This document shows, in pieces, positions 35,483-36,151 of a DNA stretch of 53,883 nt. A program made the position numbers and the translations under genes. Source of the stretch: Candidatus Levybacteria bacterium RIFCSPHIGHO2_01_FULL_37_33 (lineage in GTDB: Bacteria > Patescibacteriota > Microgenomatia > Levybacterales > UBA12049); contig MFNM01000014.1 in NCBI GenBank assembly GCA_001782085.1, positions 1 through 53,883 of the forward strand, in the 5' to 3' direction. The notes beneath the pieces are model-generated. The model was not told where the DNA came from and searched no databases. It saw nothing but the letters and a program-made list of their open reading frames with translations. The first letter of the stretch is position 1; the number at the start of each line of letters is the position of its first letter.

Positions 35483-36151
35483 TTAGAGAAACTTTCCTAA
35501 GTTAAAAGATGTTCGGTGGATTTTGGAAAGTCCGTGTTTGGCAAGTGCATCTCTATGAAATTTTGTCCCATAGCCTTTGTTTCTTACAAATCCGTATCCC
35601 GGATATTTTCTGTTGAGTTTTCTCATTAATTTGTCTCTATAGACTTTTGCAATTATGGATGCGGCGGCAATAGATATGCTTTTCCTGTCCCCTTTTATAA
35701 TTGCTTTTTGATTCACAAGCCCAATCCCGCGAATATAGCGGATATGGAAACCATCTGCTAAAACGAAAATAGGCGGTTTACTTTTATTTATTTCTAATAT
35801 TTGCCAGAGCACTATTTTTACAACTTTTCTAATTGCCATTTGAGTAGCTTTTCCTATTCCGAATTTATTTATGGCGGGAAGCCCGATTGTAGATGTTGCA
35901 TATAACAGTGAATGTTTTATTATTTCTTTTGAAAGCACTTCTCTTTTTCTGGGATTTAAAAGCTTTGAGTCATTAATTTCTCTAAGGATACTCCTTGTAC
36001 GAGGCTGACAAGGAGTATCCTTGCTGAAAACTACAGCTCCTGCAACAACCGGTCCTGCAAAGCTTCCCCTTCCTACCTCATCCACTCCTATTACAAATTC
36101 ACAGCCTTTTTCCCAAATCTTTATTTCCTCTTTGAAGCTTGGCTTTTTCAT
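35483..36151 (-). CDS. rnhB: ribonuclease HII
   Basis: GVDEVGRGSFAGPVVAGAVV, NDSKLL, ADGFH, IAAASIIAKVYRD. Start trimmed to MKKPSF (36151). Confidence 0.9.
   Translation of the reverse strand: MKKPSFKEEIKIWEKGCEFVIGVDEVGRGSFAGPVVAGAVVFSKDTPCQPRTRSILREINDSKLLNPRKREVLSKEIIKHSLLYATSTIGLPAINKFGIGKATQMAIRKVVKIVLWQILEINKSKPPIFVLADGFHIRYIRGIGLVNQKAIIKGDRKSISIAAASIIAKVYRDKLMRKLNRKYPGYGFVRNKGYGTKFHRDALAKHGLSKIHRTSFNLGKFL
35984..36023. repeat. REP doublet hairpin (REPIN-like) inside the rnhB reading frame
   Basis: AAGGATACTCCTTG - TACGAGGCTGA - CAAGGAGTATCCTTG. Matches the 28120-28160 copy at about 35 of 40 positions, including the identical 20-mer GCTGACAAGGAGTATCCTTG. Encodes KDTPCQPRTRSIL. Confidence 0.9.

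Follow-up and report, generated by a model that had tools for sequence, protein, structure and literature searches.

The rnhB gene of a Levybacteria genome holds a short palindromic repeat that is read in frame as part of RNase HII. The locus raises the question of which repeat family the palindrome belongs to, how it came to lie within a coding sequence, and what has kept it there. To address this question, we present here an analysis of the 53,883-nt stretch of DNA that contains the gene (the window), of the genome to which it belongs (G000; 849,851 bases in 52 contigs, 37% GC), and of related Levybacteria. Our main reading, to which we assign a probability of about 0.87, is that the 41-nt palindrome is a REPIN of a RAYT-associated family, installed and translated in a tolerant loop of RNase HII.

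A REPIN is an inverted pair of REP sequences, a non-autonomous element that is thought to be mobilized as a single-stranded DNA (ssDNA) hairpin by a Y1/HUH enzyme of the RAYT type. Systems of this kind reportedly include the REP/BIME elements of Escherichia coli with YafM and the REPINs of Pseudomonas with RAYT (TnpA_REP), and are said to have been described by Nunvar in 2010, by Bertels and Rainey in 2011, and by Ton-Hoang in 2012.

The rnhB repeat and its family

The doublet in rnhB (Table 1) is 41 nt long and consists of two 15-mers of the CAAGGATACTCCTTG type separated by an 11-nt spacer. It reads TAAGGATACTCCTTG-TACGAGGCTGA-CAAGGAGTATCCTTG in the window and CAAGGATACTCCTTG-TCAGCCTCGTA-CAAGGAGTATCCTTA on the coding (minus) strand; the intergenic copy reads CAAGGATACTCCTTG-CATAAAGCTGA-CAAGGAGTATCCTTG. 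An initial annotation, made from the sequence alone, had described the rnhB doublet as nearly identical to the intergenic copy, as translated without a break between two conserved blocks, and as forming a hairpin in the mRNA. This observation of an in-frame REP hairpin in RNase HII is confirmed. The arms of the doublet are complementary at 14 of 14 positions, and the 20-mer GCTGACAAGGAGTATCCTTG is common to both copies. The called ORF that holds the doublet (35483-36181, minus strand) is intact, and the translated element, SKDTPCQPRTRSILRE, sits between GPVVAGAVVF and INDSK, giving 13 extra loop residues. As RNA, the local 81 nt around the doublet have a predicted folding energy of -30.3 kcal/mol (z = -4.65). 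A reading of the hairpin as an intrinsic terminator was ruled out, as no U-run follows it. With up to two mismatches allowed, the window contains 8 matches to the 15-mer, compared with 0.04 expected; none of 100 shuffles reached 8.

Table 1. Repeat elements and associated genes in the window, and forms of the rnhB element in related genomes
Feature	Window position or genome	Strand	Description
REPIN (REP doublet) in rnhB	35983..36023	-	In frame inside rnhB; translation KDTPCQPRTRSIL
rnhB (RNase HII)	35483..36151	-	222 aa from MKKPSF; DEVGRG, DSK, and ADG catalytic motifs intact
Intergenic REPIN	28120..28160	.	Perfect 15-bp arms; between two minus-strand genes
RAYT-like Y1/HUH gene	19924..20607	-	227 aa; NHFH and YIHRNP motifs; REP doublets on both sides
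REP doublet, 3' flank of RAYT-like gene	19850..19889	.	
REP doublet, 5' flank of RAYT-like gene	20640..20679	.	
rnhB long form	G001, P0020, P0047		Same orientation
rnhB long form	P0022, P0051		Spacer reversed
rnhB short form	G005		2-nt spacer, G005's genome-wide style
rnhB short form	P0102		Variant arms CAAGGATCATCCTTG/CAAGGATGATCCTTG with compensatory changes
rnhB, degenerate arms	G021 (L012 2043-2095)		Nested second-family 15-mer CAAGGCGACGCCTTG

That the element belongs to a repeat family, as the initial annotation had proposed, is borne out by the genome as a whole, which contains 8 doublets on 6 contigs, and by a RAYT-like gene bracketed by matching doublets. The genomic doublets have their arms in common, with starts 25-26 bp apart, and their spacers follow the consensus TCAGCYTYGTR. 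The 15-mer arms are palindromes in their own right (CAAGGA-NNN-TCCTTG) with a 3-nt centre that occurs in either orientation, so that some copies have inverted and others direct arm pairs. The GTAG or CGTC tetranucleotide was absent from the hairpin foot and flanks in every doublet copy inspected, and no shared target motif was seen in the flanks of the G000 copies.

Four of the eight G000 doublets lie in frame within genes: in addition to rnhB, these are tsaE (translated as ARILLAQAVQGVSL, immediately ahead of the P-loop), a methyltransferase-like ORF (TRSILARGLQGVSL), and a PMT_2 glycosyltransferase gene (ARILLVSFVQGVSL). Stop codons are absent from the doublet arms in each of the six frames, and five frames are open through the 41-nt consensus; among random 41-mers from the genome, just 1.5% lack stops in every frame. 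The same 15-mer is also found in the relatives G001, G005, G009, and G038, where further hosts are UvrA (G001 and G009), DinB (G005 and G038), DprA, an amidase, and PMT_2. All six doublets of G001 are intragenic, as are about 17 of the 32 doublets inspected overall. The uvrA gene of G000 (window 42315-44765, minus strand; site near 43286) is empty, and that of G001 has 14 more codons carrying a REPIN in the linker ahead of the second ATPase domain, so the two form a clean presence/absence pair within one genus. A short REPIN lies in the same linker in G009, 6 residues from the G001 site. The TsaE protein of G001 (L038) contains 19 additional residues, PLRSPFGHLGGGEGIRPST, which its G000 counterpart (C10:1088-1633) lacks and which may be another repeat-derived insertion.

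The RAYT-like gene lies 16 kb from the rnhB repeat and has one close copy in each genome in which it occurs. Its translation contains PNHFHLQV (HUH) and YIHRNP (the YxxxNP motif with the catalytic Tyr). The protein passes the Pfam Y1_Tnp threshold (30.7 bits; cut-off, 23) and falls below that of NCBIfam REP_Tyr_transpos (NF047646; 27.3 bits; cut-off, 80); read by eye, it has GTLFETTY where TnpA_REP has WQ/WE. Orthologues in 12 genomes are flanked on both sides by a palindromic REP specific to each genome, in most cases a 15-mer of the form [CT]AAGG-N5-CCTT[GA]. This layout is that of a REP-RAYT system ("REPtron") with co-variation of repeat and enzyme, and the gene is presumed to encode the cognate enzyme of the REP family. 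A close orthologue of this RAYT was not found in G001, a genome that is 98% complete and contains REPINs. By our own tally, in which the numbers are small, about 10 mismatches occur in 12 arms of G001 versus 2 in 12 non-flanking arms of G000; the more degraded arms of a genome in which no close RAYT orthologue was found fit RAYT-dependent maintenance. The RAYT-like gene is adjoined in G000 by dinB (20747-22045), an adjacency also seen in G005, where dinB itself holds an in-frame REPIN.

The host protein

The identity of the host is clear from profile searches, in which the called ORF matches Pfam RNase_HII (E = 1.2e-30, 107 bits) and its product exceeds the cut-off of NCBIfam PRK00015.1-3 (192 against 167). 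Close homologues of the protein carry the name Candidatus Levybacteria. Residues D24, E25, D61-S62-K63, D133, and D155 are invariant across 59 RNase HII sequences. The element occupies the loop that links strand beta2 to the DSK motif. An AlphaFold2 model built with the 59 sequences (mean pLDDT, 84; pTM, 0.85) resembles Thermotoga maritima RNase H2 (3o3f) and Staphylococcus aureus RNase HII, both at a TM score of 0.70. The model shows coil at residues 43-54 and a short helix at residues 55-58, with a pLDDT of 70-76 at the element versus 85-95 in the adjoining blocks. The element-encoded loop is absent from solved homologues and is probably surface-exposed, in agreement with the placement suggested by the initial annotation. 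The annotation had also considered the loop to be longer than usual. This holds against T. maritima RNase HII (3o3g), for which a HMMER alignment leaves a 10-residue gap exactly at TPCQPRTRSI, but not against most Levybacteria, in which the loop is only 3 residues shorter (28 versus 31). The description of the enzyme as essential is not retained: the genome also holds an RNase HI-like gene, and rnhB is dispensable in model bacteria. Survival of the element in RNase HII is attributed to the combination of arms that are stop-free in six frames, a net length that keeps the frame, and a tolerant loop.

Forms of the rnhB loop in Levybacteria

Among 111 homologues, the distance from GP to DSK is 28 residues in 59, 26 in 21, 31 in 14, and 24 in 7. 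Loops translated from a REPIN are present in rnhB of many Levybacteria, each in the form of its own genome (Table 1). The 3' junction is the same in all rnhB carriers and consists of TRSIL, two codons, and then [IV][NH]DSK. The second-family 15-mer of G021 occurs at 6 sites in that genome, and its position in rnhB, nested between degenerate arms of the CAAGGATACTCCTTG family, means that two REP families have used the same loop.

Nucleotide identities to G000 were compared between the loop and the rest of rnhB. The closest relative, P0002, has a 28-type loop and shares 85% identity in the rest of the gene versus 38% in the loop. The values for the rest of the gene and the loop are 78.5% and 90% for G001, 71% and 85% for P0020, 71% and 65% for G019, and 74% and 35% for G015. 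The initial annotation had proposed that the repeat was inserted into, or overwrote, a loop. Relative to the nearest relatives, 39 nt of unrelated sequence correspond to 48 nt in G000, a net gain of 3 codons, and the P0002 figures indicate local replacement rather than a clean 13-codon insertion. By the same annotation, orthologues that lack REP elements but share the loop length and sequence would speak against its reading. Two palindrome-free orthologues (G019 and G015) match in loop length; the G019 loop, at the 65% identity given above, is consistent with a decayed copy, and the G015 loop, at 35%, has no similarity to the element.

Three further interpretations of the loop were considered and set aside. 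The common 28-residue loop (KKGSNFKDGLLSE) was examined as a decayed short REPIN; the series of protein sequences is suggestive, but the DNA identity to the element is 38-46% versus 72-85% gene-wide. A spacer specific to rnhB would have tied the G000 and G001 copies to a common ancestor, but AGCCTCGT spacers are also found in other copies. The reversed spacer of P0022 and P0051 was considered as proof of independent insertion, but in-place flipping is possible for a spacer flanked by perfect inverted arms.

The rnhB genes of G000 and G001 share 79% nucleotide identity, and their longest identical run is the 38-nt element, followed by a run of 20 nt. Synonymous differences between them number 0 of 12 in the element versus 72 of 164 outside it (P about 0.001). 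This excess conservation of nucleotides points either to a DNA or RNA sequence under selection or to copies that were renewed recently. Resident copies elsewhere are evidently renewed, judging from two comparisons: orthologous copies in tsaE of G000 and G001 have a flipped arm centre and differ at 5 of 11 spacer bases, and the PMT_2 genes of G000 and G009 carry a long and a short form, respectively, at the same site and in the same frame.

Side observations were made on the surroundings of rnhB. Downstream of a 383-aa GT4 glycosyltransferase gene (34233-35384) lies a relic of the RNase HII C-terminus (window 34075-34195, minus strand), in which 39 residues are 74% identical to the end of the live gene. 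G001 and G002 have no GT4 gene here; in both, a 480-aa GT5 gene comes directly after rnhB. On contig L069, a similar relic of 14 aa follows an inserted HAD-hydrolase gene. It looks as though single-gene cassettes, each with its own copy of the gene end, have repeatedly integrated at the 3' end of rnhB. At the other end of the gene, two contigs of other assemblies (L074 and L075) match the window with 100% identity from nt 90 of the called rnhB ORF on, and the first 40 nt of the called ORF are unrelated (comparison with window 36120-36211), which marks a sharp recombination breakpoint. By these comparisons, the rnhB locus evidently recombines.

Origin and retention of the rnhB copy

Two histories of the rnhB copy compete. 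In the first, to which we give about an even chance, a permissive loop was colonized independently several times, or a REPIN-bearing allele spread between lineages by homologous recombination. Approximately unbiased (AU) tests were run on 62 rows under LG+G4, using a short protein (~210 columns) and groups that were defined with the tree already in view. A clade of G000 and G001 was not rejected (p = 0.70), nor was one to which the decayed types of 30-32 residues were added (p = 0.55); addition of P0020 and P0022, which brings together all carriers of the 31-type loop, was rejected (p = 0.0001). This rejection implies that the rnhB loop gained the element at least twice or that the allele moved between lineages, and we regard it as good evidence, short of proof, for one or the other. 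On the tree, the REP-bearing rows need 7 changes, no fewer than shuffled rows do. The REPINs in uvrA of G001 and G009 imply separate events, lying as they do 6 residues apart in a linker that is empty in G000; the rnhB loops of G005 and P0097 resemble a pure 10-codon addition to a loop of the 23-24 type; and the relic downstream of rnhB and the sharp 5' breakpoint in the sister contigs speak for recombination at the locus. Against repeated colonization or allele transfer, an exact match of both junction and frame, as in rnhB and PMT_2, would call for strong target specificity, and no target motif turned up. The tree behind the AU result also comes from a short protein, is poorly resolved, and was divided into groups post hoc, and in a quick tree of 111 rows constrained searches beat the free search, so that its fine topology is unreliable.

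The second history, a real possibility that we nonetheless place below even odds, is a single ancient insertion into rnhB followed by renewal in place to the current REPIN form of each genome. It would account for the 3' junction, which is identical in all carriers, and for the architecture of each rnhB copy, which is that of its own genome (long in G000 and G001, with a 2-nt spacer in G005, and with variant arms in P0102). The long and short forms in PMT_2 of G000 and G009 and the flipped arm centre in tsaE of G000 and G001 follow a like pattern, and the G019 copy has decayed to the gene-wide level of identity (65% versus 71%). Its mechanism is only postulated, however; the closest relative has an unrelated loop (38% in a gene with 85% nucleotide identity); and the single clade of 31-type carriers is the one rejected by the AU test.

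A third explanation concerns retention, namely that the hairpin has been kept in rnhB for a cis-regulatory role, as a site of translation pausing, an mRNA stabilizer, or a protein-binding site. Nucleotide conservation above the synonymous background and the high stability of the hairpin are in its favor, as is the published preference of intragenic REPs for genes of replication and repair (PMC3733652), seen here too in rnhB, uvrA, dinB, and dprA. We consider it unlikely, given that the same element sits in unrelated genes in differing frames, orientations, and positions along the gene, that most relatives do without it, that it has no U-run and thus is no intrinsic terminator, and that recent renewal would explain the conservation equally well. 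An assembly chimera or chance palindrome, conceivable for a metagenome-assembled genome, can be dismissed because rnhB is 100% identical from nt 90 on, element included, in two independent ENA assemblies (ERZ27254732 and ERZ909588), the rnhB element is present in G001, P0020, P0022, P0047, and P0051 from other samples, 0.04 occurrences would be expected by chance, and the frame is intact.

The reading of the palindrome as a translated REPIN is supported by its family membership, the REP-RAYT layout with co-variation, the in-frame placement, the loop position, the recurrence, and the excess nucleotide conservation. Under this reading, the enzyme encoded at 19924-20607 would recognize the hairpin as ssDNA and drive its spread and turnover. 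The element would have been installed in the beta2-DSK loop of RNase HII, with selection removing all events except those that hit tolerant loops and leave the frame intact. Points against this explanation are the low NCBIfam score of the RAYT-like protein, the lack of the canonical 5' GTAG in the REPs, the failure to find a close orthologue of this RAYT in the REPIN-bearing genome G001, and the lack of a shared flanking motif. A further point is that the rnhB event is a replacement rather than a gain of 41 nt, for which simple transposition does not account. Candidates for the exchange of 39 for 48 nt are excision and re-insertion at a resident copy, hairpin template switching, and recombination with an allele that carries the element. 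Survival of the element in frame means that RNase HII is made with 13 repeat-encoded residues and that its mRNA has a stable hairpin of 14-15 bp, which the ribosome would unwind, perhaps with a pause; the modified enzyme would presumably stay active. The little intergenic space of tiny genomes would make protein loops a main residence of REPINs in this lineage.

More tentatively, the REPINs of Levybacteria may live largely in a few permissive loops (such as the RNase HII beta2-DSK loop, one PMT_2 loop, and the UvrA inter-domain linker) and be renewed there in place so as to track the master sequence of the genome, possibly through RAYT. We regard this broader picture as doubtful. If true, it would represent concerted evolution of a mobile hairpin in genes of an essential type and a constraint on the nucleotides of coding sequence that is independent of the protein.

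Relation to known systems

REPs and REP dimers lying wholly within ORFs and encoding 20-30 residues have been reported previously by Di Nocera, De Gregorio, and Rocco (2013; PMC3733652), with hosts enriched for DNA synthesis and repair functions, including uvrA, uvrB, and polymerases. The REPs in that survey were of the GTAG and CGTC types and came from cultured phyla, and RNase HII is absent from its main text. The Levybacteria hosts rnhB, uvrA, dinB, and dprA are similar in kind, so that the association with replication and repair already described in 2013 recurs in an unrelated phylum. The in-frame REPIN of RNase HII is therefore a further example of a published phenomenon, intragenic REPs having been known since 2013. 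More unusually, and unlike the REPs of that survey, the Levybacteria elements occupy the same loops in several genera, each genome with a form of its own; a further difference is that about half of the Levybacteria doublets are intragenic (17 of 32). Typical extragenic REPs differ likewise from those of G000, which number about 8 copies with half of them inside genes. In the literature searched, no papers on Levybacteria palindromes or on REPs in Patescibacteria were found.

Frame-keeping insertions of REPs are also known in tnpA_REP genes of TnpA_Y1 subclass 2.4, where they affect peripheral regions of the protein (Quentin et al. 2018; PMC6006769). The Levybacteria REP likewise keeps the reading frame of its host, but the hosts are ordinary housekeeping genes, and the doublets of the RAYT-like gene itself lie outside its conserved MP.KN start. 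Rickettsia palindromic elements (RPEs) occur in frame in proteins (Ogata et al. 2000, as cited in PMC3733652). The parallel with them drawn in the initial annotation is apt, in that both are palindromes in frame in housekeeping proteins of a reduced genome and tolerated in surface loops; the resemblance is functional only. RPE-1 elements are longer, at about 100-150 bp. We know of no dedicated transposase for RPEs, and their sequence family is, to our knowledge, unrelated.

REP-RAYT systems have been studied almost only in Proteobacteria, and the present findings suggest that they also operate in bacteria of the candidate phyla radiation (CPR). The CPR type of REP is atypical in that it is self-palindromic and lacks GTAG, and about half of its copies are translated in housekeeping proteins of sub-megabase genomes. 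For annotation, it follows that an unusual loop insertion in a CPR protein can derive from a repeat and should not be taken as a lineage-specific functional motif. The family also offers filled sites naturally paired with empty ones (uvrA), as well as decayed copies and sites at which the form differs between genomes, and on these the entry, persistence, and replacement of REPINs can be tested.

The closest comparison for the system as a whole is with REP/TnpA_REP systems, which have been classified by Quentin et al. (2018; PMC6006769) and in which the WQ/WE motif of TnpA_REP has been linked to recognition of GTAG. Shared features are a dispersed short palindrome, inverted doublets, a bracketed Y1/HUH gene, and co-variation of repeat and gene, and the NHFH and YIHRNP motifs of the Levybacteria protein resemble the class 2 motifs described there. 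Unlike those systems, the Levybacteria REPs have no 5' GTAG and have self-palindromic arms with a flipping centre, and the protein has LFE in place of WQ/WE, is longer (227 aa), and scores below the NCBIfam cut-off. The 0.85-Mb genome of G000 additionally contains 8 divergent Y1 paralogues, of which at least five (C11:9021-9587, C49:537-1076, window 5890-6336, C13:11725-12165, and C43:24438-24878) share 29-40% identity with the RAYT studied here; each of these may have its own hairpin family.
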